DNA from: Heterodontus francisci
Lineage: Eukaryota
Direction: 5' to 3'
Assembly (NCBI RefSeq): GCF_036365525.1
Contig: NC_090395.1
Location: forward strand, 30,045,813 to 30,109,812
DNA: 64,000 bases
The position numbers were made by a program, and so were the translations under genes. This document shows positions 9,001 through 63,414 of the stretch, piece by piece. Below the pieces are notes generated by a model, which had not been told where the DNA came from, searched no databases, and saw only the letters and a program-made list of their open reading frames with translations. Within the stretch, counting starts at the first letter, position 1, and every line of letters begins with the position of its first letter.

Positions 9001-10757
9001 GTCCACTCCATGTTCTCCAAATCTCAGTCTCCACCCCTCCCTGGTCTCTAGTATCAGTCTCCTCCCCTCCCTGTTCTCCAATCTAAGTCTATTCCCCTCC
9101 CTGTTCTCCAATATCAGTCTCCTCCCCTCCCTGTTCTCCAATATCAGTCTCCTCCCCTCCCTGTTCTCCAATCTCAATCTCCTCCCCTCCCTGTTCTCCA
9201 ATCTCAGTCTCCTCCCCTCCCTGTTCTCCAATATCAGTCTCCTCCCCTCCCTGTTCTCCAATCTCAATCTCCTCCCCTCCCTGTTCTCCAATCTCAGTCT
9301 CCTCCACTCCCATTTCTCCTATCTCAGTCTTCTCCACTCCCTGTTCTCCAATCTCAGTCTCCTCCACTCCCATTTCTCCTATCTCAGTCTTCTCCACTCC
9401 CTGTTCTCCAGTCTCAGTCTCCTCCCGTCCCTGTTCCCCAATATCTGTCTCCTCCCCTCCCTGTTCTCCAATCTCAGTCTCCTCTCCTCCCTGTTCTTCA
9501 ATATCAGTCTCCTCCCCTCCCTGTTCTCCAATCTCAGACTCCTCCCCTCCCTGTTCTCCAATATCAGCCTCCTCCACTCCCTGTTCTCCAATCTCAATCT
9601 CCTCCCCTCCCTGTTCTCCAATCTCAATCTCCTCCCCTCCCTGTTCTCCAATCTCAGTCTCCTCCACTCCCTGGTCTCCAATCTCAGTCTCTTCCCCTCC
9701 CTGTTCTCCAATATCAGTCTCCTCCACTCCCATTTCTCCGATCTTAGTCTTCTCCACTCCCTGTTCTCCAATCTCAGTCTCCTCCCCTGCCTGTTCTCCA
9801 ATCTCAGTCTCCTCCCCTCCCTGTTCTCCAATATCAGTCTCCTCCCCTCCCTGTTCTCCAATATCAGTCTCCTCCCCTCCCTGTTCTCCAATATTAGTCT
9901 CCACCTCTCCCTGTTCTCCAATCTCATTCTCCTCCCCTCCCTGTTCTCCAATATCAGTCTCCGCCACTCCCATTTCTCCTATCTCAGTCTTCTCCACTCC
10001 CTGTTCTCCAATCTCAGTCTCCTGCCCTGCCTGTTCTTCAATCTCATTCTCCACCGCTCCCTTGTCTCTAATATCAGTCTCCTCCCCTCCCTGTTCTCCA
10101 ATATCAGTCTCCTCCTCTCCCCTTTCTCCAATCTCAGTCTCCTCCCCACCCTATTCTCCAATCTCAGTCTCCTCCACTCCATGTTCTCCAAATCTCAGTC
10201 TCCACCCCTCCCTGGTCTCTAGTATCAGTCTCCTACCCTTCCTGTTCTCCAATCTAAGTCTATTCCCCTCCCTGTTCTCCAATATCATTCTCCTCCCCTC
10301 CCTGTTCTCCAATATCAGTCTCCTCCCCTCCCTGTTCTCCAATCTCAATCTCCTCCCCTCCCTGTTCTCCAATATCAGTCTCCTCCCCTCCCTGTTCTCC
10401 AATATCAGTCTCCTCCCCTCCCTGTTCTCCAATATCAGTCTCCTCCCCTCCCTGTTCTCCAATCTCAATCTCCTCCCCTCCCTGTTCTCCAATATCAGTC
10501 TCCTCCCCTCCCTGTTCTCCAATATCAGTCTCCTCCCCTCCCTGTTCTCCAATCTCAATCTCCTCCACTCCCTGTTCTCCAATCTCAGTCTCCTCCCCAT
10601 CCTGTTCTCCAATCTCAGTCTCCTCCCCTCCCTGTTCTTTTGCATCAGTCTCCTCCCCTCCCTGTTCTCTAATCTCAGTCTCCTCCCCTCCCTGTTCTCT
10701 AATCTCAGTCTCCTCCCCTCACTGTTCTCTAGTATCAGTCTCCTCCCCTCCCTGTAT
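1..10757. repeat. 30-bp tandem satellite/minisatellite, ~358 monomers, consensus CCAATCTCAGTCTCCTCCCCTCCCTGTTCT, with higher-order structure; continues off the left edge
   Basis: Direct 30-bp periodicity with occasional 28/29/31-bp monomers; degenerates at ~10640-10757. All ORFs here (EETEIGEQGG, RRLRLENREG, SNLSLLPSLF) are translations of the unit. Confidence 0.98.
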
Positions 10758-11029
10758 TATCGTATGTGTCCTTCTATTAAGTCCAATGAGGGCGTATTTC
10801 AAAGAACTTTCTGCAACATGGGAAATAAAATTTGTGAATCATTTCCAGATGAAATGAATTAAAATGCAGCGAATTGAAATTCAGCTTGTATGGATCCTTG
10901 ATTAGACCATATTTGGTCTCCACATTATAAAATGGAAAACATACAATCATAATTTGCAATTATGATACCAGAACTGAGAGGCTTTAACAGGAAATGTTCA
11001 ACAGGCTGGGCGGGGGAGGGGGCGTCTTT

Positions 11030-11188: not shown

Positions 11189-11918
11189 AAAAGAGAGAAT
11201 CCAACCATCTCCTCTTGACATTCAGTGGGATTACGATCGCTGAATCCTCCACTATCAACATCCTAGGTGTTACCATTGACCAGAAACTGAACTGGAGTAG
11301 CCATCTAAATACTGTGGCTACAAGAGCAGGTCAGAGGCTAGGAATCCTGCAGCGAGTAACTCACCTCTTGACTCCCCAAAGCCTGTCCACCATCTACAAG
11401 GCACAAGTCAGGAGTGTGATGCAATATTCTCCACTTGCCTGGATGGGTGCAGCTCCAACAACACTCAAGAAGCTCGACACCATCCAGGACAAAGCAGCCC
11501 ACTTGTTTGGCACCCTATCTGCAAATATTCACTCCGTCCACCACCGACACACAGTGGCAGCAGTGTGTACCATCTGCAAGATGCACTGCAGCAATGCACC
11601 AAGGCTCCATCGACAGCATCTTCCAAACCCGTGACCTCTACCACCTAAAGGGACAAGGCAGCAGATGCATGGGAACACCACCACCTGCAAGTTCCCCTCC
11701 AAGTCACAAACCATCCTGACTTGGAACTATATCGCTGTTCCTTCACTGTCACTGTGTCAAAATCCTGGAACTCCCTTCCTAACAGCACTGTGGGTGTACC
11801 TACCTCACATGGACTGCAGCGGTTCATGAATGCAGCTCACCACCACCTTCTCAAGGGCATTTCGGGATGGACAATAAATGCTGGCAACGCCCACATCTCA
11901 TGTACGAATAAAAAAAAC
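11189..11918 (+). mobile_element. 5'-truncated copy of the tRNA-headed LINE family (RT C-terminus, 3' UTR, A tail)
   Basis: ORF 11215-11634 GVTIDQKLNWSSH..YKAQVRSVMQYSPLAW matches 37956-38405; ends ..cccacatctcatgtacgaataaaaaaaa. Confidence 0.9.
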
Positions 11919-12130
11919 TCAGAGCCTGGTTAAACTGTGGAACTCACTGCCACAAGAAGTAGTTGAGGTGACCAGCAGAGTTGCATTTAAGGGGAAGTTA
12001 GATGAATACATGAAGGTGGGGGAAGAATTAGGATATGTTGAAGAGGTTAGATGAAGACGCTTGTGTGGAGCATAAATATTGGCATGGACCGGTTTAGCTG
12101 AATGTCCTGTGCTGTAAATTTGGTGTAATT
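11919..12130 (+). mobile_element. Old CR1 LINE 3' fragment, right part
   Basis: 'ctgtggaactcactgccacaagaagtagttgag' = LWNSLPQEVVE, followed by a CR1-type 3' UTR. Confidence 0.75.
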
Positions 12131-13144
12131 CGATGTAAGTTCTTGGTGATAATTAGAAACATAAATCCCAGATTTGAATGCAGCCTGGAAACCAGTGAAA
12201 TGATCAGATCTGGGGAAGGGGATTGAGATTATTATCATCACTGACTCATCGACAGAGAAACTTGAATCTGTGAAATGTTAGTTTTAGATGTTTAAAGTGC
12301 TTTCCAGGAAAGTAGAACAGATGCACTTTAAATAATGCTTTTCAGTGCAAAGAACTAACAGATTTAGGTCCCGATGGTTAAGTCGCACAGATGAGTTATA
12401 TTTAATGTGTTTTTCCAATTGCCATTTAATAATGACTGCAGTTAAAACAAATTACAAAGTAAGATGTGCGAATCTAAATGACACCAAAAGGTACAGCTGT
12501 CACCTTTGATTGATTTTCACAAAGGGTAGTATTCATGAAATGTAAAAGCAATTTTTCACTGGTTCGATGTTGACATGAGGGATAAATTATGCAGTGTTTA
12601 TCAAAAGGAATATTGGCACATGACATTATGTTCACCAATTATCAGAATGCCAAACAGCTCTTTAGAAAACATTAAACCTGTTTTTTTTCCCCTGATGAAT
12701 CAGTGTTTGCATTTGAGAAGCACCATTCATTTCAGTCTCATTAAATACAACAACCACTGGGACCCATCAAGTAAGTTTCTTTTCCCTAAAATGATTACTC
12801 CTGACTATTTTCAATTCTTAATAGTTTCCTGAAAGAGAATATCTTTAGGCGTTTAAAGACGTTTGGTAATGTAGTGGCTATGTTCCTGAATCCAAGGGAT
12901 TGGGACTAATAATCCTAGAAGGGAATATGGGCGTGAAATTGAGTTGCAAAGTGGTGCTCTGGAGGCCTACCGTGGGTTTCTGTGTGCACGATGCTCTGCT
13001 GGCTGTTTCCTCCATGGCCCGCAGCATTACTGAAGTGTACTGGTGCATCCAGATATGTCTCTGCCTGCAGCCGAAGACTTTTCATGCACGCGATCCTGGC
13101 ATTAGTAACCCGAATGGGCTGATGCAATGCCAGGGTACCAAATC

Positions 13145-13400
13145 TGGCTGTGACTCAGTAGATAGCACTCTCGCCTCTGAGTCAGAAGGTTGTGGGTTTA
13201 TCTCCCACTCCAGGGCTTGAGCACGACAATCAAGGCTGACACTCCAATGCAGTTCTCCGGGGGTGCGACACTGTTGGAGGTGCTGTCTTTTGATGAGATG
13301 TCAAACTGAAGCTCAGTTTGTCCTGTCAGGTGGATGTAAAAGATTCCACCGCACTATTTTGAAGAAGAGGAGCAAATAAATGTCCCATATCCCCCCCTAA
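13145..13400 (+). mobile_element. DeuSINE (SacSINE1-like), 3' truncated
   Basis: tRNA head 'gactcagtagatagcactctcgcctctgagtcagaaggttgtgggtt' and Deu-domain-like 'caggtggatgtaaaagattcc..cactattttgaagaagag'. Confidence 0.8.
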
Positions 13401-13856
13401 TACACTGCAAATAAATGGTCGCCCCGTTCCCTCCCATCCAAAGCACTTAAATTGCAGAGTTGACTTTTCCTCCCTCCAAATGCACAAAGTGCAGAGGTTG
13501 CTCCTTCTCCCCCACCCCACACTAAAAATCATAAGTTCCCCCATTCCACGCTTCAGTGGCGCCTGCTTTCCCTGGACGGGAAAACGAAGGCGCACGAGTG
13601 CCACCCATTGCACGGAAGATCCTGGATAGCCGGTAAGATTGCAGAGAATTGTAGGTAAATGTGTTCATGAGGTTTATTTAAATATTTAAAGTTGGGTCAC
13701 ATCACCAAGCAGCGGGGGGGGCCTGCCAGGGACCCTCACTGCCACATAGAAGATTGGGCCCGGCAATCCCAGTGTTGAGCTCCGTGGTGGGCTGCTGTGA
13801 TCTTGCGGCCCACCTTGCCACAGAGCCCAACGTCGGGATTCAACAAAATTCTGCCC
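13400..13856 (-). mobile_element. Harbinger-type MITE fragment related to 31543-32340
   Basis: Ends aaaattctgccc; 13670-13780 is reverse-complement similar to 31650-31750. Confidence 0.55.
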
Positions 13857-14688
13857 ATTGTGTGTCAACTTCTCCAGCAATAGACAGGACAGAACATCAG
13901 TGACTGTGTGCCACTGTCCTTGGGTAATGTGCTGAATAGCTGTAAGTTTACAGAGTTGTGAAGAGGTGTGTGTGCGGTTGGCATGATTGGAAGGTGTGTG
14001 TGCGTGAGGTGTGGTACAAGGATGTTAGGGGTGAGTCCTGAGTGTCAGGGTGTGTCCCTGGGTGAGTGATTGGGGTGAGGTGCATTGAGCAGTGTGAGAG
14101 GTGGGTGGTGCAGTGGGTCTGAGATGTGATGCTCAGATGCATTCGCTCACCTTGACCACCCAAGTGAGTTCACTAAACTTGCAGCACTGTTGCCATATCC
14201 TGGGTGTGACACTCTGGCCATTAACCATCTTTGCCAGCTGCTTCCATTCCCTTCATTCATGAAGGATTCCTGCGCCCTGGCAGAAACATGGCTTCTCTCC
14301 TTTCCTTCACTTATGCCAACAGTGCCTTTAGGCTAGCAGCACTGAAGTGCCTTTTCCCTGGTGTGCTGCAACATCTCCCTTGACCATGAGTGTTCCAAAG
14401 TGATTATCCAGCAGCCTGCTGAGCAATAATACAGCTTCCCTTTTATCGGGACTGTGCCGTTAAAAAGGGAAAGTTGTCTGGGGCACATAGTTTGAACACT
14501 GCTCAGGCGCCTGTGGTGCACAGAGGCCAATGGCAGCGCTACGGAGAGGAGTGCAGCACAAGATCCACTGGGGGTCACGCTACAATCATGGAAATGAGCT
14601 GGGTGCACCCGTCTCATTCTGACGTGGCACAGGATGGTTATGAATCATGACATCCGGCACAATAATGGGGCTATCCAATTTCCCAGCC

Positions 14689-14880
14689 TATGAGTTCAAA
14701 TCCCAAAAAAGGCTGTTTGAGAATATGAATTCAGTTTTGCAAAACCTGGAAATGTAAAGCTGGAATCAGTAAAAGTGATCTTAAAGCTGTGGATTTGTTG
14801 TTAAAGACACAACCATCTCACAAATGTCCTTACCCATCTAGTCTGTATGTGATTCCAGTCCTACACTAATATGGTTGACT
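14689..14880 (+). mobile_element. Old tRNA-SINE of the 28166 type, middle piece (head at ~12865-12928, tail at 18452-18575)
   Basis: 'gagttcaaatccc' B box ... 'atggttgact|cataactcc' rejoins across the LINE; tail 'aaatgctggctttgccagtgatgcccacat'. Confidence 0.7.
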
Positions 14881-15086
14881 TTTTTTAATTCATTCATGGT
14901 ATGTGGGCGTCACTGGCTAGGCCAGCATTTATTGCCCATCCCTAATTGCCCATGAGAAGGTGGTAGTGAGCTGCCTTCTTGAACCGCTGCAGTCCATCTG
15001 TGGTACACCCACAGTGCTGTTAGGAAGGGAGTTCCAGGATTTTGACCCAGCGACAGTGAAGGAACGGCGATATAGTTCCAAGTCAG

Positions 15087-15181
15087 TTCCGAAGAAGGGT
15101 CACTGACCCGAAACGTTAACTCTGCTTCTCTTTTCACAGATGCTGCCAGACCTGCTGAGTGGTTCCAGCATTTCTTGTTTT
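15087..15181 (+). mobile_element. 95-bp Penelope-derived insertion with a minimal hammerhead ribozyme core; 14-bp TSD
   Basis: CCGAAGA-A-GGGTC-ACT-GACCC-GAAACGTT; TSD tagttccaagtcag at 15073-86 and 15182-95; absent from LINE copy 2 at the equivalent site. Confidence 0.75.
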
Positions 15182-16228
15182 TAGTTCCAAGTCAGGATGT
15201 TGTGTGACTTGGAGGGGAACTTGCAGGTGGTTCCCATGTATTTGCTGCCCTTGTCCTTCTAGTTGGTAGAGGCTGCAGGTTTGGAAGGTGCTTTCCATGG
15301 AGCCTTGGTACAGTGCATCTTGTAGATGGCACACACTGCTGTCACTGTGTGTCGGTGGTGGAGGGAGTGACTGTTTGTAGATGGAGTGCCAATCAAGCGG
15401 GCTGCTTTGTCCTGGATGGTGTCAAGCTTCTTGAGTGTTGTTGGAGCTGCACCCATCCAGGCAAGTGGAGAGTATTCCATCACACTCCTGACTTGTGCCT
15501 TGTAGATAGTGGACAGGCTTTGGGGAGTCAGGAGGTGAGTTACTCACTGCAGGATTCCTAGCCTCTGACCTGGTATTTATGGTAACTCTAGGATGTTGAT
15601 AGTGGGGGATTCAGCGATAGTAATGCAATTGAATGTCAAGAGTAGATGGTTAGATTCTCTCTTGTTGGAGATGGTCATTGCTTGACACTTGTGTGGTGTG
15701 AATGTTACTTGCCACTTGTCAGCCTGGATATTGTCCAGGTCTTGCTGCTTTTCTACACAGACTGATTCAGTATCTGAGGAGTCACGAATGGTGCTGAACA
15801 TTGTGCAATCATCAGTGACCATCCCCATTTCTGACCTTAAGATTGAAGGAAGATCATTGATGAAGCAGCTGAAGATGGTTGGGCCTAGGACACAACCCTG
15901 AGGAACTTCTGCAGTGATGTCCTGGAGCTGAGATGATTGACCTCCAACAACCACAACCATCTTCCTTTGTGCTAGGTATGACTCCAACCAGTGGAGAGAT
16001 TTTCCCCAGATTCCCATTGACTTCAGTTTTGCTAGGGCTCCTTTGATGTCATACTCGGTCAAAAGCTGCCTTGATGTCAAGGGCAGTCACTCTCACCTGA
16101 CCTTTTGAGTTCTGCTGTTTTGTCCATGTTTGAACCAAGGTTGTAATGAGGTCAGGAGCTGAGTGGCCCTGGCAGAATCCAAACTGAGCTTTTTGTGCAC
16201 AGCACATACCTGGGCAATGTTCCACATT

Positions 16229-16588
16229 GGCGGCACAGTGGCGCAGTGGTTAGCACCGCAGCCTCACAGCTCCAGGGACCCGGGTTCGATTCCGGGTACT
16301 GCCTGTGTGGAGTTTGCAAGTTCTCCCTGTGTCTGCGTGGGTTTTCTCCGGGTGCTCCGGTTTCCTCCCACAAGCCAAAAGACTTGCAGGTTGATAGGTA
16401 AATTGGCCATTATAAAATTGTCACTAGTATAGGTAGGTGGTAGGGAAATATAGGGACAGGTGGGGATGTTTGGTAGGAATATGGGATTAGTGTAGGATTA
16501 GTATAAATGGGTGGTTGATGGTCGGCACAGACTCGGTGGGCCGAAAGGGCCTGTTTCAGTGCTGTATCTCTAATCTAATCTAATCTAA
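16229..16588 (+). mobile_element. HE1-type V-SINE
   Basis: A box tggcgcagtgg, B box ggttcgattcc, V-domain tgtgtggagtttgcaagttctccc..gctccggtttcctcccac, CR1-type tail gggccgaaagggcctgtttc, (TAATC)n end. Confidence 0.93.
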
Positions 16589-19247
16589 TTGCCGGGTAGA
16601 TGCCAGTGTTGTAGTTGTACTGGAACAGCTTGGCTAGGGGTGCGGCAAGTTCTGGAGCACAGGCCTTCAGTACAATTTCCGGAATATTGTCAGGGTCCAA
16701 AGCCTTTGCAGTATCCAGTGCCTTCAGTCTTTTCTTGATATCACGTGGAGTGAATCGAATTGGTTGAAGTCTGGCATCTGTGTTGCTGGGGACTTCAGGA
16801 GGAGGCTGAGATGGATCATTGACTCGGCACTTCTGGCTGAAGATTGTTGCAAATGCTTCAGCCTTATCTTTTGCACTGATGTGCTGGGCTCCCCCATCAT
16901 TGAGGATGGGGATATTTGTGGAGCCACCTCCTCCAGTTAGTTGTTTAATTGTCCACCACCATTCACGGCTGGATGTGGCAGGAGTGCAGAGCTTGGATCT
17001 GATCCGTTGGTTATGGGATCGCTTAGCTCTGTCTATCGCATGCTGCTTACGCAGTTTGGCACGCTAGTAGTCCTGTGTTGTAGCTTCACCAGGTTGAGAC
17101 CCCATTTTGAGATATGCCTGGTGCTGCTCCTGGCATGCCCTCCTGCACTCTTCATTGAACTCGGCTTGGTCTCCCGGTTTGATGGTAACGGTAGAGTGGG
17201 GGATATGCCGGGCCATGAGGTTACAGGTTGTGGTTGAGTACAATTCTGCTGCTGCTGATGGCTCACAGTGTGTCATAAATGCCCAGTTTTGCATTGCTAG
17301 ATCTGTTTGAAATCTATCCCATTTAGCACGGTGGTAGTACCACACAACACGATGGAGAGTATCCTCAATGTCAAGGCTGGACTACGTCTCCACAAGGACT
17401 GTGCAGTGGTCACTCCTGCCAAGACTGTCATGGATAGATGCATCTGCAACAGACAGATTGGTGAGGACAAGGTCAAGTATGTTTTTCCCTCTTGTTGGTT
17501 CCCTCACCATCTGCAGCATACCCAGTCTTGCAGCTATGTCCTTTTGGACTCGGCCGGCCCGGTCAGTAGTGATGTTACCGAGCCACTCTTGGTGATGGAC
17601 ATTGAAGTCCCCCACCCAGAGTACATTCTGCACCCTTGCCTCTCTCAGTGCTTCCTCCAAGTGCTGTTCAACATGGTGGAGTACTGACTCATCAGCTGAG
17701 GGAGGGCGGTCGGTGGTAATCAGCAGGAGGTTTCCTTACCCATGTTTGACCTGATGCTATGAGACTTCATGGGGTCCAGAGTCGATGTTGAGGACTCCCA
17801 GGGCAACTCCCTCCCCCCTGTGTACCACTGTGCCGCCACCTCTGCTGGGTCTGTCCTGCCAGTGGGACAGGACATACCCGGGGATGGTGATGGCAGTGTC
17901 TCAGACATTGTCTGTAAGATATGATTCCGTGAGTATGACTATGTCAGGCTGTTGCTTGACTAGTCTGTGGGACAGCTGTCCCAACTTTGACACAAGCCCC
18001 CAAATGTTAATAAGGAGGACTTTGCAGGGTCGACAGGGCTGGGTTTGCTGTTGTCGGTTCCAGTGCCTAGGTCGATGCCGGGTGGTCCATCCGGTTTCAT
18101 TCTTTTTTATTGACTTTGTAGTGGTTAGATACAACTGAGTGGCTTGCTAGGCCATTTCAGAGGGCATTTAAGTGTCAACCACATTACTGTGGGTCTGGAG
18201 TCACATGTAGGCCAGACCAGGTAAAGACAGCAGATTTCCTTCCCTAAAGCACATTAGTGAACCAGATGGGTTTTTACAATAATCGACAATGATTTCATTA
18301 TTAGACTAGATTAGACTAGATTCCAGATTTTATTATTTGAATTTTAATTCCACCTTATCTGTGGTGAGATTCAAACCCATTTCCCCAGAGCAATACCCTG
18401 AGTTTCTGGGTTACTAGTCCAGTGACAATACCACTGCCCCATCGCCTCCCCATAACTCCTTTTAACTGGCCTCTGAAGTCATTCAGTTACCACCACTTTC
18501 CCAGGGCAACAAGGGGTGGACATTAAATGCTGGCTTTGCCAGTGATGCCCACATGCCGAGAATTTATTTTAAAATAAATTTACATAAAAAGCATTCCATG
18601 TTTGTATGTTTCTGTTCATTAACATGAGGAATGTTAGTTGCTGATTGGTATAGGCCAACAGTACAACAGAGGAAATTTGACTTTGTGCACTATGCAATGA
18701 GTTGGCCTATATCAAATTTAAACACTCACAGCTGGCACAGACTGGATTAAATGCAGAGTAAAGCCTCCTCCACTCTGCTTCAATGATGTGTCTTAATCAC
18801 AACTACTGGAAAGGACTCTCCTTGACACCAGTGTGACATTCTTATTTCCCACACCATTTATCCTTGAGGCCTCTGTGAGTGGTGCTGCCAGTTGTAATGC
18901 TGAATGAGGGATGATATGCTATGGGCATGAATCCACCAGGGACTGAGCTCAATCTGTCCAATCTCACCACAGAGGATGCCTAATCTGAGTCTACCTTGGG
19001 AGTGACACTGGATACAAAAGTTGGGAAGTTCACCAGCATGATAACCCCCATCCTGATGAATAGAAAAAAATGACTCACAATGAATGTGACAAAACAATGG
19101 AACCACCAATTTTCATATTCCAATTGGTCAGCAGAAACTTTGCAAGACTTAATTTTACACAAAATGATAAAATAGCCCAGTCCACATGGAAACAAAAAAT
19201 AAATTTGAAAACCTTAACCTTTCTGGGGAAAAGGGCTTTTCCAGACA

Positions 19248-20373: not shown

Positions 20374-21331
20374 CATACGAACATATGAAAATATGAATTA
20401 GGAGCAGGAGTAGGCCACTCGGCCCCTTGAGCCTGCTCCGCCTTTCCATAAGTTCATGGCTGAACTGATTTCTCCACATTACCATCTACCCCCGATAATC
20501 TTTCACCCCCTTGCTTATCAAGAATCTATCTACCTCTGCCTTAAACATATTCAAAGAATCTGCTTCCACCGCCTTTTGAGGAAGAGAGTTCCAAGGACTC
20601 ACGACCCTCTGAGAGAAAAAATTTCTCCTCATCTCTGTCTTAAATGGGCGACCCCTTATTTTTAAACAGTGACCCCTAGTTCTAGATTCTCCCACAAGGG
20701 GAAACAACCTTTCCACATCCACCCTATCAAGACCCCTCAGGATCTTATATGTTTCAATCAAGTTGCCTCTTACTCTTCTAAATTCCAGCGGATACAAACC
20801 TAGCCTGTCCAATCTTTCCTCATAAGATAGATCGCCCATTCCGGGTATCAGTCTAGTAAACCTTCTTTGAACTGCTTCCAATGCATTTACATCCTTCCAT
20901 AAATAAGGAGACCAGTACTGTACACAGCACTCCAGATGTGGTCTTACCAATGCCCTGTAAAACTGAAGCATAACCACCCTACTTTTGTATTCAATTCCTC
21001 TCGCCATAAACGATATTCTACTGGCTTTCCTAATTACGTGCTGTACCTGCATACTAACCTTTTGCGATTCATGCACTAGGACACCCAGATCCCTCAGCAT
21101 CTCAGTGCTCTACAATCTCTCACTATTTAGATAATATGCTTCTTTTTTATTCTTCCTGCCAAAATGAACAACTTTGCATTTTCCCACATTATACTCCATC
21201 TGTCAGATTTTTGCCCACTCACTTAACCTATCTATATCCCTTTGTAGTCTCCTTACGTCCTCTAAACAACCTACTTTCCTATCTATCTTTGTATCATCAG
21301 CAAATTTAGCAACCATACCTTCGGTCCCTTT
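20374..21331 (-). mobile_element. CR1 LINE 3' part (outer element; upstream part at 23238-23544)
   Basis: ORF 20486-21100 RDLGVLVH..YRALVRPHLECCVQYWSP..; tail stem-loop 'gcaggagtaggccactcggccccttgagcctgc'. Confidence 0.92.
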
Positions 21332-23237
21332 ATTAGAACATTAGAACATTAGAACATTACAGCGCAGTACAGGCCCTTCGGCCCTCGATGTTGCGCCGAC
21401 CATCTGACCTACACTATTCCATTTTCATCCATATGTCTATCCAATGACCACTTAAATGCCCTTAAAGTTGGCGAGTCTACTACTGTTGCAGGCAGGGCGT
21501 TCCACGCCCCAACTACTCTCTGCGTAAAGAAACTACTTCTGACATCTGTCCTATATCTTTCACCCCTCAACTTAAAGCTATGTCCCCTCGTGTTTGCCAT
21601 CATCATCCGAGGAAAAAGACTCTCACTATCCACCCTATCTGACCCTCTGATTATCTTGTATGTCTCAATTAAGTCACCTCTCCTCCTCCTTCTCTCTAAC
21701 GAAAACAACCCCAAGTCCCTCAGCCTTTCCTCGTAAGACCTTCCTTCCATACCAGGCAACATCCTAGTAAATCTCCTCTGCACCCTTTCCAAAGCTTCCA
21801 CATCCTTCCTATAATGCGGTGACCAGAACTGCACGCAATACTCAAGGTGCGGCCTCACCAGAGTTTTGTACAGCTGCATCATGACCTCGTGGCTCCGAAA
21901 CTCGATCCCCCTACTAATAAAAGCTAACACACCATATGCCTTCTTAACAGCCCTATTAACCTGGGTAGCAACTTTCAGGGATTTATGTACCTGGACACCA
22001 AGATCTCTCTGCTCATCTACACTACCAAGAATCTTCCCATTAGCCCAGTACTCTGCATTGCTGTTACTCCTTCCAAAGTGAATCACCTCACACTTCTCCG
22101 CATTAAACTCCATTTGCCATCTCTCAGCCCAGCTCTGCAGCCTATCTATGTCCCTCTGTACCCTACAACACCCTTCGACACTATCCACAACTCCACCGAC
22201 CTTCGTGTCATCCGCAAATTTACTAACCCACCTTTCTACACCCTCATCCAGGTCATTTATAAAAATGACAAACAGCAGTGGCCCCAAAACAGAACCTTGC
22301 GGTACACCACTAGTAACTAAACTCCAGGATGAACATTTGCCATCAACCACCACCCTCTGTCTTCTTTCAGCCAGCCAATTTCTGATCCAAAGCTCTAAAT
22401 CACCTTCAACCCCATACTTCCGTATTTTCTGCAATAGCCTACCGTGGGGAACCTTATCAAACGCCTTACTGAAATCCATATACACCACATCCACGGCTTT
22501 ACCCTCATCCACCTGTTTGGTCACCTTCTCGAAAAACTCAATAAGGTTTGTGAGGCACGACCTACCTTTCACAAAACCGTGCTGACTATCGCAAATGAAC
22601 TTATTCTTTTCAAGATGATTATAAATCCTATCTCTTATAACCTTTTCCAACATTTTACCCACAACCGAAGTAAGGCTCACAGGTCTATAATTACCAGGGC
22701 TGTCTCTACTCCCCTTCTTGAACAAGGGGACAACATTTGCTATCCTCCAGTCCTCCGGCACTACTCCTGTCGACAATGACGACATAAAGATCAACAACAA
22801 CGGCTCTGCAATCTCCTCCCTGGCTTCCCAGAGAATCCTAGGATAAATCCCATCTGGCCCAGGGGACTTATCTATTTTCACTCTTTCCAAAATTGCTAAC
22901 ACCTCCTCCTTGTGAATCTCAATCCCATCAAGCCTAGTCGGCTGTATCTCAGTAATCTCCTCGGCAACATTTTCTTTCTCTACTGTAAATACTGACGAAA
23001 AATATTCATTTAACGCTTCCCCTATCTCCTCTGATTCCGCACACAACTTCCCACTACTATCCTTGATTGGCCCTGTTCTAACTCTTATCATTCTTTTATT
23101 CCTGATATACCTATCGAAAGCCTTAGGGTTTTCTTTGATCCTATCCGCCAATGACTTCTCGTGTCCTCTCCTTGCTCTTCTTAGCCGGGTTCATTACCCA
23201 GTACCAAATCCAATGTGGCATCGCCCCTGGTTGGCCT
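21332..23237 (-). mobile_element. Young 5'-truncated CR1 (HER1-like) LINE nested in the older CR1; uninterrupted 580-codon RT frame at 21409-23151
   Basis: KSPGPDG, QHGF, DFSKAFD, PQGSVLGP and KFADD motifs with no stops; (AATGTTCT)n tail at 21332-21358. Confidence 0.95.
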
Positions 23238-24344: not shown

Positions 24345-25133
24345 ATTTTTCAACCCATGCCAGCCTACAGCAAACTTGGATAATGAGCAGGCTTGGGCTG
24401 GGAATTTGCAGTTAACATTCATACTACGTAAGTTCCAGCTAATGACAATCTCCTAAAGAGAAAGCCCAAACACACCCTTTCAACTTTCAACAACACCAAC
24501 ACTGCTAGGTCTTCTGCCATCAACATCTTGGGGGTCACCACTCATCAGAAACCTAGCTAGACCAACATATCAATATCAGAGCAGGGTAGAACATTCTGGA
24601 ATGAACTGCTCTCCTCCTGACCCTTGAAAACTTCTCCACCATCTACAAGGCTCGAGTAGATCTGTACTGAAATACTCACCAATCATCTAAATGGGTGCAG
24701 CATCAACAACACTAGAGAAATGCAATGTGATCCAGGGTAAACCAGTCCACTTGGTTGGCACCCTTGCATCACTGGCACACTGTAGTTGAAGTGTATACTA
24801 TCTACAGGATGCATTGCAATAACTCATCAAGGTTATGTTGACAGCATCTCCCTGTCCGACAACCTCTACCACTGAGAAGGCCAAGGGCAGTAATACATAG
24901 AGGGAAACTTGAAGATGATGACGTTTTCTAAGTAAAACACGACCGCTGTTCCTTCATCGTAACTGGGTCAGTATCCAGGAATTCCCTGCATAACAATATT
25001 TTGGATGCACCATCACTAAATGGAATGCAATGGTGCAAAAAGTAGACCACCACTCCTCCGGAAAACTAGGGATAGCCATAAAATGTAATCTTGCTAGCAT
25101 CAAAGCATCCCAAGAACAAGTAATTTAAAAAAC
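24345..25133 (+). mobile_element. Older, diverged relative of the tRNA-headed LINE (3' part)
   Basis: Recognisable 'atcaacatcttgggggtcacc', 'tccaccatctacaaggctc', 'aatgggtgcagcatcaacaacact' and a similar tail. Confidence 0.75.
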
Positions 25134-28165: not shown

Positions 28166-28570
28166 GGAGATGGGGGTGCAGCGGTGATGGCGCTGAACTA
28201 GTAATCCAGAAGTCCAGACTAATGCTCTGGGGACATGGGTTCAAATCCCATCGTGGCAGCCGGTGGAATTTAAATTCAATTAATTAATAAAAATCTGGAA
28301 TTGAAAGCTAGGCTCAGTAATGGTGCCAGAAAACTATCATTGATTGGCAAAAAACCCATTTGGTTCACTAATGTCCTTCAGGGAAGGAAACCTGCTGTAC
28401 TTAACCTGGTCTGGCCTACATGTGACTCCAGACCTACAGTAATGTGGTTGACTCTTAATTGCTCTCTGAAATGGCCTAGCAAGCCATTTAGTTGTCAAGG
28501 ACAATTAGAGATGGGCAACAAATGCTGGCCTTGCCAGCGACTCCCACATCCCATGAAGGCATAACAAAAA
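28166..28570 (+). mobile_element. tRNA-derived SINE = 5' head plus 3' tail of the tRNA-headed LINE
   Basis: B box GGTTCAAATCC at 28238-48; 28166-28495 matches the reverse complement of 18131-18451; 28496-28570 matches the LINE 3' end (rc 37578-37650), including the GCTGGC-CTT-GCCAGC hairpin. Confidence 0.9.
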
Positions 28571-28849
28571 GTCGCTGTCCAAATTAATGGATGTAGAGTG
28601 AGCACTTGGGAGAGGTGGATCTGCTAGCTGAGGAACTATGCTGGAGGCCAGCATCAGTGTCTCCAGGCCAGGAAGGAAGTCAAAGGGCTGGAGAAGCTGG
28701 AGCTGTTCAAAGCTGATTCAACAGCAACATCCAAAGTTCAAACTTGTGTCCCTCACCTGCATTCAATTTTCAAATAACATCAGCACTGGGTCCAAATATT
28801 TGTTCTTTGCTTCTCCCAAATTGTGTCATTACAATCTCAGAAAGGTTTT

Positions 28850-32340: not shown

Positions 32341-34260
32341 AAAGTGTGGGGTTTGGCTCAGCTCAGAGTTGATCAGGAAGCTGAAGTTTAGTAAGGACTG
32401 TTAAGATCAGCCGGGTCTCCACATCACAGGAATCCCCAGGTTTACTTTGCGGCAGGTGCACAACACACCCACCCCTTCCATTAAAATCAGGCCCATTAAC
32501 TCATCTGTTCTTTCCTCGCGAGTGACTGACCTGCTGAATGTTTCCAGAATTTCCTATTTGTGTTTCAATGCTTTTGTCTTTCGCATTTCGGAACTTTATT
32601 AGATAATCCTCAGTTGTCCTTCTCTGAGGTGTCAGTCAGGCTTCTTCTTAAAGGTGTAATGAACCCCGACTCAACCACATTCCTCTGGAATTCTGTGCCA
32701 CGTGTGCACTATTCTGTGGGAATACTTCAGAGGAAATGATTTACTTCACAGGAAAAGCCTGATCCTGATGTGGAGGTTATGACATGGCTGCCTTTCTCAA
32801 CCTTGTGTGTTTTTGGCCAAAGGATGGAATGAGGGCAGAGTGCAGTCGGGGCAAGAGAGGGAACAAGAAATCCATTGAAAGGAATGTTGGCAAACTGGAA
32901 GAATCCAAAAACAGTCATCAATGAACTAGAGAGATAATCCTGAGACCACTGAGCTAGTAACAGGTCGCTCTCTGTCTTTTTTGAATGGTGAGACTGTTTA
33001 GACTCTTTATCACGGTGGCAGAAACGTTTTCTCATGGTATCCTCTGATCAGAGCAGCATGAATACCCTTTCTAATGCAAATTCCTCCCTGTTATGTGGAT
33101 TTTGCGTTTTTTGGCTGGTCAATTATTTGGCATCAAAAAGCTTTCACTAAAAGACACTCGTCACTGTTTTGAGGGAGTGATCATGAAATGCATTCAAAGT
33201 TTTTTTCGGACAGGCATTGTCTCAGAATTGATTTCTGAAACTTATTATTACCTCAGTCTGAAACCATGAAAGCCAAAATAAGAAATCTGTCACCAGAATC
33301 ATGTTTAAGTGTTAGATATTGCAGTGTGTAGATGGAACCTTACTCTCATAGGTTGTCCAGTTAATGGCTTCTGTTAGGGGCAAACAATGTTTGAAATTTC
33401 AATGGCTAGGAGTTTCCACATGATTTCTGCCTACAAAGAGGTGGAATCCAGACAGAATGAAATGAAATGACGCAAAGGATCATGGAATTTTGGGGGTAAG
33501 TGAGTCGCGCCCACTGGAGTTTCCGCCATCTTTTATACAGACTCAAAAGTCCCTGAAGTCCTTGCCCAAAAAACTGGCCACATCCTCCAGGCAGAATGCT
33601 GAGTTTCCACACATTACACCCATCCAGGGATGTTCATCACATTGTGCCCAGAATTTCAGGAACCATGGCAAGCAGAGCTAAAGGAATCCATCGTTAATGA
33701 CCTGCAGCTACTATGACCAGTCAATTGAAGCCTCTTTCAGGTTTGGTTCTGATATTGATGTCACAATTACTTTAAATTCAGTTTAAATGAGTTCAAATTA
33801 ATCTGCCCTTTGTACAATGAGATCTGTGACCAACAGTCAATTGAAACCACTGATTGGCCTGTCCCTTCAGCTGCAGCAATAACTTGAACATGTTTTCCAT
33901 TTAAATTAGTTTAAAGTCAATAATCTTAAGGGCTCATTGGCCATGTTCCAGTTAATAGTTGATTATAATCAATAACGTTGCTTATGCACTTATTCGTGGG
34001 AGATTTTACTTTCAGGTTTATGCTAATAAATAGAAACTTGTGCGTAACTCCACCTAGGCAAAACCAGCGCAGTGTCCAGTGCATTCTGGACCATTTTACT
34101 GATTGCTCCCCTAGCAGTAAATTCAGGCCTTTGGATATATTGATGGCTTATCAATGAAGCAGCTTCCATAGTTTATGAATGTGATCAAATTGTTAAGGAA
34201 ATCATTTCTTGCTCTTGAAGAGAATGTTGACCTCTTCAAACAGTGTCAAGACATGACTGC

Positions 34261-34355
34261 GATGAAAGGTCACTGACCTGAAACGTTATCTCTGCTTCTC
34301 TCTCCACAGACGCTGCCAGACCTGCTGAGTATTTCCAGCACTTTTTGTTTTTATT
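34261..34355 (+). mobile_element. 95-bp hammerhead-core Penelope-derived insertion; 15-bp TSD
   Basis: GATGA-A-AGGTC-ACT-GACCT-GAAACGTT; TSD tcaagacatgactgc at 34246-60 and 34356-70. Confidence 0.75.
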
Positions 34356-35484
34356 TCAAGACATGACTGCACAGGTTGTATGTGCGTTGTCTTCAGCTGT
34401 ACTGGAACCAAATCATAGAAGTTGCTTCTTTATTGGTTGAAGAGAGTTGCTTCAGCTGTGGGTTTCCACTGCTCAGGTCTCATGCACGTCTGGCACCAAC
34501 CGTTGCCATATTCATTAAGATCAGCCATTCGAAAGATTTGGTTAAAGTGGATCTTCCCAGCTATCAGCCTTAACTAACTTGGCAGATATACATTGGGTGT
34601 TTGAGACCAGCATCCCTCCAAGCTCAGTGTGAAAACAGCCAAAGGAGTGAAACCTACCTTACCTTAGTATAAACAGATTAGGTTTGGTAGCTTCATGACA
34701 TGAGATTTATATCAAACTTGTGGTTTTGACCATAACACCAAAACTACTAAAGTCTTGGGGCACACATTGCATCCAACCACTTGTCTTTGGGATTGAAATT
34801 CCATCGTACAACCTTAGTACTAATTAACACATTCTTATGACATTTCTTTGCTGGCTATTTTAAGTATTCATTTCTTAATTTTTCAGATGGAAGGACTTCA
34901 CATGGGTGTGAATATGCAGCTTACTAAAGTTGCAAACCGTAATTTACACCTATTTGCATCTGGAATACGGTGTAGTATGGTGTTGAAAGTGCCTGTGTAC
35001 ATGACAAAACTCACTTTGAATTGCCTGGCACAACATATTTTCAAATGTGTACAGGTAGTGAGTATTTACCATATTGTGTGGAATAATTACTTAACATTAT
35101 TGAGAAGAATCTAAAATGCTACTATCCTGAAGATTACTGTGAGATACCAACATTATGCATGATGTCAGTCACCAGTTCCATTTTGCCTATTTTATTATAC
35201 ATGCTGGGGATCCACCTTCATCTGTGATGTGCATCTGGTGGATGACAGGAAAAGTGGCGGCCGGGGGGAATCCATTCTAATCACGTCGATAATGTTGATC
35301 GGAGGCCCAATCAATTTTGGCCTCTTATGAATTTCAGTGGCAGGCTGCCCAATGCTAATCATATTGCTTATAGCAACTCACCATTTGGGAGGGCTGGGAA
35401 ATCCAACGGCAGTGTTGCCAGTTAAAGGCAGCCTGCGCTTCAAAAAGAAAAGGTGGGATTTTCAATGGTAGAGTGGAGAAACTA

Positions 35485-37571: not shown

Positions 37572-40500
37572 TTTTTTAAATTTATTCATTCATGGGATGT
37601 GGGCGTCGCTGTCTAGGCCAGCATTTATTGCCCATCCCTAAATGCCCTTGAGAAGGTGGTGGTGAGCTGCCTTCTTGAACCGCTGCAGTCCATTTGGGGT
37701 AGGTACACCCATAGTGCTGTTAGGAAGGGAGTTCCAGGATTTTGACTCAGCGACAGTGAAGGAACGGTGATATAGTTCCAAGTCAGGATGGTGTTTGACT
37801 TGGAGGGGAACTTGCAGGTGATGGTGTTCCCATGCATTTACTGCTCTTGTCCTTCTAGTTGTTAGAGGTCGTGGGTTTAGAAGGTGCTGTCTAAGGAGCT
37901 TTGGTGCATTGCTGCAGTGCATCTTGTAGATGGTACACACTGCTGCCATTGTGTGTCAGTGGTGGAGGGAGTGAATGTTTGTGGATGAGATGCCAATCAA
38001 GCGGGCTGCTTTGCCCTGGATGGTGTCGAGCTTCTTGAGTGTTGTTGGAGTGGCACCCATCCAGGCAAGTGGAGAGTATTCCATCACACTCCTGACTTGT
38101 GCTTTGTAAATGGTGGACAGGCTTTGGGGAGTCAGGAGGTGAGTTACTCGCCTCAGGATTCCTAGCCTCTGACCTGCTCTTGTAGCCACAGTATTTATAT
38201 GGCTACTCCAGTTCAGTTTCTGGTCAATGGTAGCCCCTAGGATGTTGATAGTGGGGGATTCAGCAATGGTAATGTCATTGAATGTCAAGGGGAGATGGTT
38301 AGATTCTCTCTTGTTGGAGATGGTCATTGCCTGGCACTTGTGTGGCGTGAATGTTACTTGCCACTTATCAGCCCAAGCCTGGATGTTGTCCAGGTCTTGC
38401 TGCATTTCTGCATGGACTGCTTCAGTATCTTAGGAATCATGCATGGTGCTGAACATTGTGCAATCATCAGCGAACATCCCCACTTCTGACCTTATGATTG
38501 AAGGAAGGTCATTGATGAAGCAGCTGAAGATGGTTGGATGGCACAGTGGCATAGTCGTTAGCACCGCTGCCTCACAGCTCCAGCGACCCGGGTTCAGTTC
38601 TGGGTACTGCCTGTGTGGAGTTTGCAAGTTCTCCCTGTGTCTGCGTGGGTTTCCACTGGGTGCTCCGGTTTCCTCCCACAGCCAAAGACTTGCAGGTTGA
38701 TAGATAAATTGGTCATTGTAAATTGCCCCGAGTCTAGGTAGGTGGTAGGAGAATGGTGGGGATGTGGTAGAGAATATGGGGTTAATGTAGGATTAGTATA
38801 AATGGGTGGTTGTTGGTTGGCACAGACTCGGTGGGCCGAAGGGCCTGTTTCAGTGCTGAATCTCTAAATAAAATATAAAAACCATCTTCCTTTGCGCTAG
38901 GTATGACTCCAGCCAGTGGAGGGTATTCCCATTGACCTCAGTTTTGCTTGGGCTCCTTGATGCCATACTTGGTCAAATGCTGCCTTGATGTCAAGGGCAG
39001 TCACTCTCACCTCACCGCTTGAATTCAGCTCTTTTGTCCATGTTTGGACCAAGGCTGTAATGAGGTCAGTAGCTGAGTGGCCCTGGCGGAACCCAAACTG
39101 AGCATCACTGAGCAGGTTATTGCTAAGCAAGTGCCACTTGACAGCACTGTCAATGACACCTTCCATTACTTTACTGATGATTGAGAGTAGGCTGATGGGG
39201 CGGTAATAGGCCGGGTTGGACTTGTCCTGCTTTTTGTGTACAGGACATACCTGGGCAATTTTTCACATTGCAGGGTAGATGCCAGTGTTGTAGCTGTACT
39301 GGAACAGCTTGGCTAGGGGTGCGGCAAGTTCTGGAGCACAGGTCTTCAGTACTATTGCTGGAATATTGTCAGGACCCATAGCCTTTGCAGTATCCAGTGC
39401 CCTCAGTCGTTTCTTGATATCACGCGGAGTGAATCGAATTGGCTGAAGTCTGGCATCTGTGATGCTGGGGACTTCAGGAGGAGGCCGAGATGAATCATCA
39501 ACTCAACGCTTCTGGCTGAAGATTGTTGCAAATGCTTCAGCCTTATCTTTCGCAGCGATGTGCTGGGCTCCCCCATCATTGAGGATGGGGATATTTGTGG
39601 AGCCACCTCCTCCAGTTAGTTGTTTAATTGTCCACCACCATTCACGGCTGGATGTGGCAGGACTGCAGAGCTTGGATCTGATCTGTTGGTTATGGGATCG
39701 CTTAGCTCTGTCTATCGCATGCTGCTTATGCAGTTTGGCACGCAGCTAGTCCTGTGTTGTAGTTTCACCAGGTTGACACCTCATTTTGAGGTATGCCTGA
39801 TGCTGCTCCTGGCATGCCCTCCTGCACTCTTCATTGAACAAAGGTTGGTCTCCTGGCTTGATGGTAATGGTAGAGTGGGGGATATGCCGGGCCATGAGGT
39901 TACAGATTGTTGTTGAGTACAACTCTGCTGCTGCTGATGGCCCCACAGTGCCTCATGGATGCCCAGTTTTGCATTGCTAGATCTGTTCGAAATCTATCCC
40001 ATTTAGCACGGTGGTAGTACCACACAACACGATAGAGGGTATCCTCAATGTGAAGGCGGGACAAGGACTGTGCATTGGTCACTCCTACCAATACAGTCAT
40101 GGACAGATGCATCTGTGGCAGGCAGATTGGTGATGACGAGGTCAAATATGTTTTCCCCTCTTGTTGGTTCCCTCACTACCTGCCGCATACCCAGTCTAGC
40201 AGATATGTCCTTTAGGACTTGGCCAGTAGTGGTGCTACCAAGCTACTCTTGGTGATGGACATTGAAATCCTCCACCCAGAGTACATTCTGCACCCTTGCC
40301 CCCCTCAGTGCTTCCTCCAAATGCTGTTCATCATGGAGGAGTACTGACTCATCAGCTGAGGGAGGGCGGTAGGTGGTAATCAGCAGGAGGTTTCCTTGCT
40401 CATGTTTGACCTGATGCCATGAGATTTCATGGGGTCCACAGTTGATGTTGAGGACTCCCAGGGCAACTCCCTCCCGACTGTATACCACTGTGCCGCCACC

Positions 40501-41060
40501 TCTGGTGAGTCTAGACATACTGGGGGATGGTGATGGCAGTGTCTGGGACATTGTCTGTCAGGTATGATTCCGTGAGTTTGACTATGTCAGGCTGTTGCTT
40601 GACTAGTCTGTGGGACAGCTCTCCCAACTTTGGCATAAGCCCCCAAATGTTAGTAAGGAGGACTTTGCAGGGTGGACAAGGCTGGGTTTGCCATTGTCAT
40701 TTCTGGTGCCTAGATCACTGCCGGGTTTCATTTTATTGACTTCGTAGCGGTTAGATACAACTGAATGGCTTGCTAGGCCATTTCATAGGGCTTGTAAGAG
40801 TCAACCACATTGCTGTGTGTGTGGAGTCACATGTAAGCCAGCAGATTTCCTTCCCTAAGGGGCATTAGTGAACCAGATGGGTTTTTAATAACAACCGACA
40901 ATGGTTTAATAGCCATCATTAGATGGCTTTTAATTCCAGATTTATTAATTGAATTCAAATTCCACCTTATCTGTGGTGAAATTCAAACCCATTTCCCCAG
41001 AGCAATATCCTGGGTCTCTGGGTTACTGGTCCAGTGACAATACCACCACCCCACCACCAC
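37572..41060 (-). mobile_element. Near-full-length tRNA-headed APE-RT LINE; copy 2
   Basis: Colinear with 14881-18451; YRPP, EDFNVHH, QFGFR, LDIKAAFD, FADD motifs; head at ~40757-41060. Confidence 0.92.
38538..38880 (+). mobile_element. HE1-type V-SINE replacing ~70 bp of the host LINE
   Basis: HE1 sequence; LINE bases equivalent to 15883-15954 are missing at this site. Confidence 0.9.
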
Positions 41061-49844: not shown

Positions 49845-49947
49845 TTCTGATGAAAGGTCCATCGAACTGAAATGTTAACTCTGTTTCTCTCTCCACAGCT
49901 GCTGCCTGACCTGCTGAGTATTTCCAGCACTTCTTGTTTTATTTCAG
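49845..49947 (+). mobile_element. Third hammerhead-core Penelope-derived fragment
   Basis: CTGATGA-AAGGTC..GAAATGTTAAC with the same downstream body. Confidence 0.65.
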
Positions 49948-54500: not shown

Positions 54501-56086
54501 AATCCACATCCTGAGAAGGTTATACCATAACAAGGTCTGGGAGAGTTGTCAAACCACTGAAACTCAAGAGGTGTAACCTTCAAAGGAAAACAAGTGATTG
54601 TGCCCAAAGCTCTCCGACAGGACATCTGTCACAATTTACTCCAAGGCCATATGGGTATAGAGTGAATGAGATGACTGGCACAAGACACTGTTTATTGGCC
54701 AGGGATCAGTGGTGACTTCGAAAGGTGAGTGAGGATGTGCGAGGCATGCCAGAGCCTCTGCACCCTAACGAGATTCCGTCAGTCCCTTGGTCCAAAATCA
54801 CCACTGATCTATTTACCATGAATGGAGATGACTTTATATTCATCACAGATTATTTCTCCAAATTTCCAATTGTCAGACAGCTAAAAGACACTTCAAGTGC
54901 GGTTGTTGCAGATACATTGAGTGCCATATTCAGTCTCTTCGGTGCACCTGAAGAAATTATTTCTGACACTGGGCCACAGTATACGGGCAGACCTTTCAGG
55001 GATACGTGTGCTAAATAGGGTGTAAACCATGTGACGACCTCATCGCATTACCCTAGTTCTAACAGTCTTGCCAAGCGCATGGTTCGCACAGTTAAATTGC
55101 TTATCCTGAAGTGTAGGCCAATGAAACAAGATTTTCGTGTTGCCATGCTCCACCTCAGAGCTACACCTACGGATATGGGCTTACCGTCAGCAGCAGAAAT
55201 CATATTTGGCAGACAAGTGCGAACGATTCTGCTAACCCATCATCTGTCCAAATTCTCCGAGATGCAGGAGACACTGCTCGAAAAACAAGGGAGAATGAAG
55301 ATGGTACATGCAGGGGCGGAACTACCTCAGCTACATGTAGGACAAAAAGTCAAGGTCATACACCCCACAATGAGAACGTGGTTACCTGCAGAGATATCCA
55401 AAATATGCAGTGAGCTTAGGTCTTATGAGGTTACAACACCTAACGGAGCAGTGTTGAGGAGGAACCAAAGCCGAATTAAGAGAAGTGTGTAATACTCCAA
55501 TTGCACATAGCGGACTCGAAAGAACACACTCTGACGAGGAGGGTGTGACGGAACAACAGGACAACATCTAACACATTGACAATACTTATGCAAGTCAAGT
55601 ACAGCCAAGGGTGAAATCCACATCCTGAGAAGGTTATACCATAACAAGGTCTGGGAGAGTTGTCAAACCACTGAAACGATATATGGATTCTTAAGCTTCT
55701 GCACTCGTAAATTTCACAATCCCTATCCTTATACTTGTAAATTTTGTTATCTCCATCCATGTATAACTAATTTTGATATTATCCAATTTTATGTGTTTTA
55801 CTTGCAGCATACAAGACTTATCTTTGGAAAGAAAGGGGATATTGTATGATTGCTTTAGCAGTGATGTATCTTTAAGTACTCAGTATGCTGATGAGCTAAG
55901 TACCAGGATGTAGTCACGTGACTAGAAGCCATAGTCACTCTGCACTGGAACACCCTAAACTAAGGTTCTGTATATAGTTTGCTTTGTATTGTATATACTA
56001 GTTTAATTGTTAATAAACTCTCTAGAGATCTTCAAGGAACTGGAATCCACGTACCTCAATGTGTTGCTTAAAAGAAACTCATGTCA
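51530..56086 (+). mobile_element. Gypsy/Ty3 LTR retrotransposon with both LTRs (51530-51785, 55840-56086); protease/RT deleted
   Basis: Paired LTRs, TSD gccag/gccac, PBS TGGTGGCAGTAGTGG (tRNA-Leu-like), PPT gaaagaaagggga; gag remnant, RNase H (FTVETDHKPM), integrase (TDYFSKFP, SDTGPQY). Confidence 0.92.
52350..52703 (+). mobile_element. HE1-type V-SINE nested in the Gypsy element
   Basis: HE1 sequence with a (TAAAC)n tail. Confidence 0.92.
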
Positions 56087-62990: not shown

Positions 62991-63004
62991 GGCTTTTCTA
63001 AGCT

Positions 63005-63414
63005 TTCTGTTTTCCCTGGAGTGAAGGAGGCTGAGAGGGGACGTGATAGAGGGATATAAAATTATGAGAGGCATAGATAGGGTAGATAGCCAGAGTCTGT
63101 TTCCCATGGTAGGGGTGACTTAAACTAGAGGGCATAGATTTAAGGTGAGAGGGAGGAGGTTTAAAGGGGATCAAAGGGATACATTTTTCACACAAAGAAT
63201 AGTGGGTATCTGGACTGAGCTGCCAGAGGAGGTGGTGGAGGCAGGAACAGTAGCGACATTTAAGAGGCATCTGGACAGGTACTTGAATGAGCAAGGCATA
63301 GAGGTATATGGATTTATTGCAGGCAGATGGGATTAGTATAGATAGGCATTATGGTTGGCATTGACGCGGTGGGCCGAAGGGCCTGTTTCTATGCTGTACG
63401 ACTCTATGACTCTA
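63005..63414 (+). mobile_element. CR1/HER1-like 3' fragment
   Basis: FFTQRIVGIWTELPEEVVEAGT; tail gggccgaagggcctgtttc..gctgta shared with HE1; (GACTCTAT)n end. Confidence 0.88.

Follow-up and report, generated by a model that had tools for sequence, protein, structure and literature searches.

The window analysed here is a 64,000-nt stretch of the Heterodontus francisci genome (contig NC_090395.1, forward strand). It contains a 405-nt SINE in which a 330-nt tRNA-type head and body directly abut a 75-nt tail. Every part of this SINE falls within sequence that matches a LINE family present in the same window. The coordinates of both elements and of their relatives are listed in Table 1.

Table 1. 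SINE and LINE features of the window. Positions count from the first letter of the window.
Feature	Positions	Strand	Remarks
SINE copy, 405 nt	28166–28570	+	tRNA-type head, body and Zenon tail
tRNA-like part of the SINE	28166–28260	+	A box and B box
Body of the SINE	28261–28495	+	same type of sequence as the Zenon 5' UTR
Head/tail junction	28495–28496	+	one among several nested junctions of the family
Zenon-derived tail of the SINE	28496–28570	+	last three ORF codons, stop codon (28506–28508), 3' stem-loop, short A tail
Zenon LINE copy A	14876–18449	−	full length, decayed; head (18449–18131), endonuclease-RT ORF, tail
Zenon LINE copy B	37581–41059	−	full length, decayed; head (41059–40757), ORF, tail
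Zenon copy C	11191–11921	+	5'-truncated, limited to the RT end and tail; gives no information on the head
Old LINE relative	24368–25099	+	5'-truncated, about 65% identical, related tail
Older SINE, probable first piece	12862–12925	+	weak, 1/500 shuffles; missed by nhmmer
Older SINE, middle piece (B box to body)	14688–14875	+	0/500 shuffles
Older SINE, body end, junction and longer Zenon tail	18447–18580	+	0/500 shuffles

The head was scored against consensus patterns of the A and B boxes. The A box (28174–28184) has two mismatches and the B box (28238–28248) has none. Rfam gives a weak match to the tRNA/tmRNA clan (28217–28252, E 0.027, below the gathering score), ARAGORN does not call the head as a tRNA and its predicted fold is not significant (z −1.5). 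The putative tRNA derivation of the head rests on the boxes and the arm pattern. With this head, a LINE-derived tail containing a stem-loop and many copies, the element has the properties of a tRNA-derived SINE (SINE2). No target-site duplication is seen around positions 28166–28570. The first-pass annotation had stressed that the SINE has no TTTT. This is true of all 405 nt, but 0.8–1.1 such runs are expected by chance and none at all occurs with P 0.3–0.4, so that the absence is uninformative on Pol III transcription. A purine-rich motif of ~13 nt in the body (28380–28395) is similar to the conserved RTE 5' UTR/Ceph motif shown in the supplement of PMC5786205, a likeness that may be chance.

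The SINE follows the LINE head up to position 28495 and switches to the LINE tail at 28495/28496, as proposed in the first pass. Positions 28166–28495 align with LINE A (18446–18131, −) at 78% identity (E 1e-69) and the head aligns with LINE B (41052–40757, −) at 73% (E 7e-48). Positions 28492–28573 align with both LINE ends (14958–14877 and 37654–37582) at 84–86% over 73–82 nt. The last 125 nt of the body are 87–92% identical to the LINE copies, whereas similarity is lowest in the tRNA part (66–70%). Segment scores are 52–65 for the tRNA part, 61–78 for the middle, 115–193 for the 3' body and 90–93 for the tail, compared to maxima of 24–30 in 200 shuffles. Three HE1 SINEs served as unrelated tRNA-SINE controls. 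Against these, the SINE head scores 16–20, which is the shuffle level, whereas its likeness to the LINE heads is far above it; this argues against generic tRNA similarity. HE1 shares only its tail with the CR1 of the window, as had been noted, and the CR1 copy concerned ends near 21300–21420. An uninterrupted CR1-type RT frame of 593 codons, with a tail matching HE1, lies at 21409–23190 (−) and was used as control for runs of four T (T4 runs, see below).

LINE copies A and B each contain one broken ORF with the Pfam domains Exo_endo_phos and RVT_1 and no ORF1. The endonuclease starts about 110 nt past the head, the 3' ends are A-rich and the lengths without inserts are 3119 and 3133 nt. Over aligned sites the two heads are 89% alike. 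LINE A sits inside the older SINE and is interrupted by HE1 (16232–16588) and by a 95-nt insert (15087–15181); LINE B is interrupted by HE1 (about 38540–38885). Both full-length copies carry the HE1 SINE in antisense orientation in the RT region, at differing positions. The 95-nt insert, in the LINE A tail region, is one of three copies of a 95–110-nt repeat (the others at 34260–34366 and 49845–49946). Elsewhere, the window holds a tandem array (1–10860, 30-bp unit, about 350 copies) with long low-complexity open frames on both strands, and decayed LTR-retrotransposon pieces (RNase H, integrase) together with a Myb/SANT frame at 53729–55492 (+), 60407–63061 (−) and 57381–57992 (−).

Judged by sequence motifs, the LINE in the window is an elasmobranch Zenon of the CR1 group. 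In Supplementary Table 2 of PMC13343379, motifs from the window match six and five rows, all Zenon, and two spellings of the B box match five rows, all elasmobranch Zenon. The first 400 nt of ten vertebrate Zenon consensuses from this source were compared by eye. All seven elasmobranch consensuses, from five species including a ray, open with the head followed by the ORF, and the A and B boxes are intact in most of them. The two hagfish consensuses and the one from coelacanth start without the head; these starts are partly of low confidence and may be incomplete. The elasmobranch Zenon-1 entries (CarCar, RhiTyp, ScyCan, SquAca, HypSab) match the window LINEs in their 5' sequence by eye. They also share with LINE A and B a length of about 3.3 kb, the lack of ORF1, the endonuclease and RT, and an A tail (PMC13343379). 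The words 'tRNA', 'promoter', 'polymerase III' and 'non-autonomous' do not occur in the main text of PMC13343379, where the head and the derived SINE are unremarked.

Protein comparison points in the same direction. Among 20 proteins with at least 50% identity to the endonuclease query, four (P0010, P0012, P0053 and P0075, all whale-shark gene models) have head-derived peptides upstream of the endonuclease. The remaining 16 have no such peptide and are uninformative, as they mostly begin within the ORF or after host exons. Two distant proteins, P0030 and P0052, have short matches to head B that are apparently due to chance. Close protein relatives of the LINE with a named source come from the sharks Heptranchias, Pristiophorus, Heterodontus, Cetorhinus and Rhincodon. 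An RT tree built without named Zenon references leaves the deep nodes unresolved and the ESM Atlas returns generic endonuclease-RT clusters only. Scans for related loci gave six distant RT loci, and no P0169-related loci in viral or prokaryote genomes. The head motif has no locus in viral contigs and six in metagenome contigs, all of them chance bacterial-type matches with no wider similarity.

The first-pass annotation had considered that the two headed LINEs might be chance chimeras. Both full-length copies of the window are headed (2/2). Since all seven elasmobranch consensuses and four whale-shark loci carry it as well, the tRNA-type head is a family trait of elasmobranch Zenon. Chance chimerism is refuted by the seven headed consensuses. 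That the LINEs are chimeras, or that the likeness of the heads is generic, is extremely improbable; no supporting point was found for either.

The SINE forms a family of many copies with one structure. Four of 24 listed sequencing runs (three coded organisms, two of the runs guessed to be RNA) were aligned to LINE copy B at 80% likeness. Among the joints listed (15 of about 16,900), the skip 37650/40759 is present in all four runs (15, 8, 10 and 13 contigs) and agrees with the junction of the window SINE within about 2 nt; the older SINE of the window adds a further copy. A longer-tailed skip, 37678/40755, is likewise among the joints listed for all four runs (16, 5, 10 and 1 contigs), and further tail entries in this set are 37643, 37665 and 37670. 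Joints at 40795 are alignment effects of the divergence of copy B, where the intervening letters are given. Accordingly, the junction position, whose constancy across SINE copies was in question, is not fixed: among the joints listed, it ranges over 5 nt on the head side and 35 nt on the tail side, with the shorter forms nested in the longest. Such nesting is compatible with a single origin and later trimming, and also with a deletion hotspot.

No contig among the joints listed connects the head to the ORF, hence the run data alone do not show headed LINEs. Read depth over the head, which is a measure neither of copy number nor of expression, has no step between head and ORF in the DNA run X1 and is higher in the head than in the adjacent ORF in the two guessed-RNA runs. 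In the elasmobranch Zenon consensuses, CAA occurs 2–3 nt past the end of the head, and both main tail entries begin with TCAA. The run data give one shared letter at the junction, and for the two main joints the intervening letters are not given; the putative T/CAA microhomology is thus taken from the consensuses. In run X5, from organism B, the HE1 insert has hardly any depth, whereas the Zenon body, the head and the two main SINE junctions are all present. Organism B is therefore probably distant from the species of the window.

The older SINE is split by LINE A, and its tail is about 10 nt longer than that of the young copy. It had been placed at 12865–18575 in the first pass and read as a sign that the SINE lineage is old. 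The copy itself is real, with two pieces never equalled in the shuffles, but its first piece is weak (Table 1). Between the first and the middle piece lies a 1.76-kb insertion (12929–14687) that is flanked by TAT at either end and whose ends form an imperfect inverted repeat. It is possibly a decayed PIF/Harbinger-type transposon; tblastn of the insertion with the Myb/SANT ORF of the window gave nothing significant.

The SINE was not cut down from copies A or B, since these two share 40 head sites against it, compared to 20 and 26 sites for the other pairings. In line with this, the SINE head is 73–78% identical to the local LINE heads, versus 89% between the LINE heads. Fifteen sites group the two SINEs against A and B (other groupings, 8 and 5). 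By eye, both SINEs of the window have a longer body segment and several states of the Squalus Zenon. The segment and these states are missing from A and B and from the three galeomorph consensuses (white shark, catshark, whale shark). Just 5' of the B box the young SINE is galeomorph-like in the same by-eye comparison. On these sequence states, the SINE appears to have split early from the LINE line and not from the resident A/B subfamily. The states fit an old deletion, and equally a SINE that is older than the LINE head.

Identification of the body as a Deu domain, with the SINE as SacSINE1, was considered and rejected. The published SacSINE1 head and Deu sequences, as printed in the supplement of PMC5786205, do not match the SINE. 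The best Deu motif matches have 10/21 and 7/17 mismatches, which is the shuffle level, and the SacSINE1-head motif has 10/22 mismatches. In the SINE as in the heads of LINE A and B, none of these motifs, nor those of CORE, V and Meta, rises above the shuffle level. These tests use short motifs, with a positive control for V only, whose motif matches the five HE1 copies and nothing else. As the body matches none of the four known SINE domains by motif, nothing here suggests an independent SINE origin. SacSINE1/DeuSINE elements of cartilaginous fishes resemble the present element as tRNA-headed shark SINEs of similar size, but they have a different head, a Deu domain and an L2 tail (PMC5499810).

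Derivatives that join the head and tail of a LINE by deletion are already known, namely Persaeus, RIME and Bov-A. The closest parallel in structure is Persaeus of Lepidoptera, a SIDE of 260–390 nt that is non-autonomous and has the 5' and 3' ends of Zenon (PMC6740152). Its 3' part includes the end of the ORF, its breakpoints are variable, and its partner is a single-ORF LINE of 3.3 kb, all as in the shark. According to the same text, such Zenon deletion derivatives arose at least four times in Lepidoptera, with 5-bp microhomology. Unlike the shark SINE, Persaeus is described there without tRNA homology or a Pol III promoter and has the ORF start and a variable central region. The shark SINE and its LINE, on the other hand, both carry the A/B-box head, and the parts of the SINE directly abut. 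The shark SINE thus has both LINE ends with the centre missing, as a SIDE does, but its A and B boxes set it apart from SIDEs, which have no small-RNA head or Pol III promoter.

Other composite SINEs share the arrangement in part. Bov-tA, AfroSINE, CoeSINE4 and SINE2_Gav consist of a tRNA head followed by LINE 5' and LINE 3' sequence, but in these cases the derivative acquired the head, which its partner LINE does not have (PMC5786205). Kojima proposed that SINE bodies derive from LINE 5' ends, and found this for RTE and Vingi only. The heliconiine ZenoSINE (PMC6685494) and bivalve HCD-SINEs with CR1-Zenon tails (PMC11481361) have a Zenon tail as well; they are described as sharing the tail only, with heads of other origin.

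The SINE is, with moderate probability, a non-autonomous retrotransposon that originated by internal deletion of a tRNA-headed Zenon LINE. Before the divergence of sharks and rays, 5' switching would have given an ORF1-less Zenon its tRNA-derived 5' end, including the A and B boxes; such switching is documented for plant RTE LINEs (bioRxiv 2022.11.04.512097). A template jump or deletion at a short T/CAA microhomology would then have joined the 330-nt 5' region to the last ORF codons. The product would have been complete at once, with an internal promoter, the body and an RT-recognition tail. Thereafter, the SINE lineage would have spread alone, with the junction shortened in nested steps, and diverged from the A/B LINE subfamily, for which the sequences give partial evidence. 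The first-pass annotation had left open whether the SINE arose by deletion or the LINE by fusion of an ORF to the SINE. Of these, deletion is favoured, although one does not exclude the other: since hagfish, coelacanth and lepidopteran Zenons are without the head, Zenon's own tRNA head must have been fused onto it.

The order of events may also have differed. The deletion could have occurred in a headless Zenon, with the tRNA head joined to the derivative and later passed back to the LINE by template switching in the 5' UTR. The tRNA gain on the derivative is the Okada-Hamada/Kojima route, each step is documented (PMC5786205, PMC6740152), and the flush junction is explained equally well. The SINEs also appear older in head state than A and B, and the low similarity of the tRNA part relative to the 3' body is a further point in favour. 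Such a return of the head is nevertheless unlikely, as it demands one extra event and the headed LINE would have had to replace all others in every elasmobranch sampled (7/7 consensuses), and neither a headless elasmobranch Zenon nor a headless derivative is seen among the sequences compared. That the junction itself is a LINE deletion, irrespective of whether the LINE or the derivative gained the head first, is likely.

Alternatively, the LINE may have received head and body from an old tRNA SINE whose body was unrelated to Zenon and whose tail was borrowed from it, so that in effect an RT ORF was fused behind a SINE. Tail exchange by template switching is common among SINEs (PMC4824008 and PMC5499810). 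Furthermore, the head-side boundary varies by only 5 nt among the listed junctions, like that of a conserved SINE module, and the 3' body is strongly conserved. The LINE, however, must have captured the SINE to within about 5 nt of the boundary between body and tail. By motif, none of the known conserved SINE domains is recognizable in the body, and the SINE-paper supplements searched do not contain it; the initial support for this origin, an assumed Deu/SacSINE1 identity, failed. Precedence of the SINE is accordingly quite unlikely, and origin by deletion from a headed Zenon is preferred.

In a stringent SINE, Pol III transcription starts from internal promoter boxes and the reverse transcriptase of a partner LINE acts in trans on the shared tail. 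Most likely, the present element would be an ordinary member of this class, transcribed by Pol III from its A and B boxes and mobilized in trans by the Zenon endonuclease-RT. From what is known of the family, this enzyme would bind the 3' stem-loop of the SINE and insert it by target-primed reverse transcription.

The LINE itself might also be a Pol III transcript; the intact boxes of most consensuses speak for this, and T4 runs bear on it. Copy A has one T4 run and copy B none in about 3.1 kb, where about five are expected by base shuffling (P 0.03 and 0.017; A and B are not independent). The CR1 of the window has nine in 1.8 kb. Dinucleotide and synonymous-codon null models give P 0.06–0.39, with one codon null at 0.044. 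The depletion is therefore borderline (P 0.017–0.39, depending on the null model). The old LINE relative is equally TT-poor over 526 nt, whatever its head type, and the LINE shows no specific avoidance of the TTT codon (Fisher P 0.13–0.86).

At its start, the ORF of LINE A lacks an in-frame ATG. The conserved ATG nearby lies in another frame, where it opens 46 codons that overlap the long ORF (18146–17960, −; also in the published consensuses). By eye, the long ORF is open back to ATG-GCC-TAG-CAA at the body end in copy A and in the white shark, catshark and stingray consensuses; this frame relation fails in those of whale shark and Squalus. Predicted folding of the 3' body does not exceed that of shuffled sequence (z −0.5, −0.3 and +1.5), which gives no support for an IRES-like fold. 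Relatives at 44–54% identity also seem to be compact, with a single ORF that has its own Met (976 aa, for a contig of 3433 nt), and ORF1 is missing from all Zenons surveyed in PMC13343379. Loss of ORF1 is therefore older than the head. In cell assays, Pol III-made Alu does not need ORF1 whereas Pol II-made Alu does (PMC2666806), a result that would be compatible with a Pol III reading of Zenon. On the whole, elasmobranch Zenon is rather unlikely to be an autonomous coding Pol III transcript with neither cap nor in-frame AUG, whose body recruits ribosomes and which yields SINEs by one deletion. If this were true, the SINE would keep the ribosome-recruiting body to meet newly made RT.

No description of a tRNA-headed Zenon or of its SINE was found in the literature searched, and a motif search of paper full texts gave three matches, all irrelevant. 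The Zenon consensus sequences are already published; new is a Persaeus-like deletion derivative that is also a tRNA SINE, which it is because the parent LINE wears a tRNA head. In repeat annotation, the SINE will be masked as Zenon and Zenon as the SINE. The direction of events is testable with existing shark and ray genomes, and Zenon can be named as a specific candidate for a Pol III transcript that codes for protein. SINEs are usually viewed as assembled from separate parts, with bodies of uncertain origin. In the present case, the head and body of the SINE are contained in full in a living LINE of the CR1 group, so that the birth of a SINE by one deletion is possible in principle.
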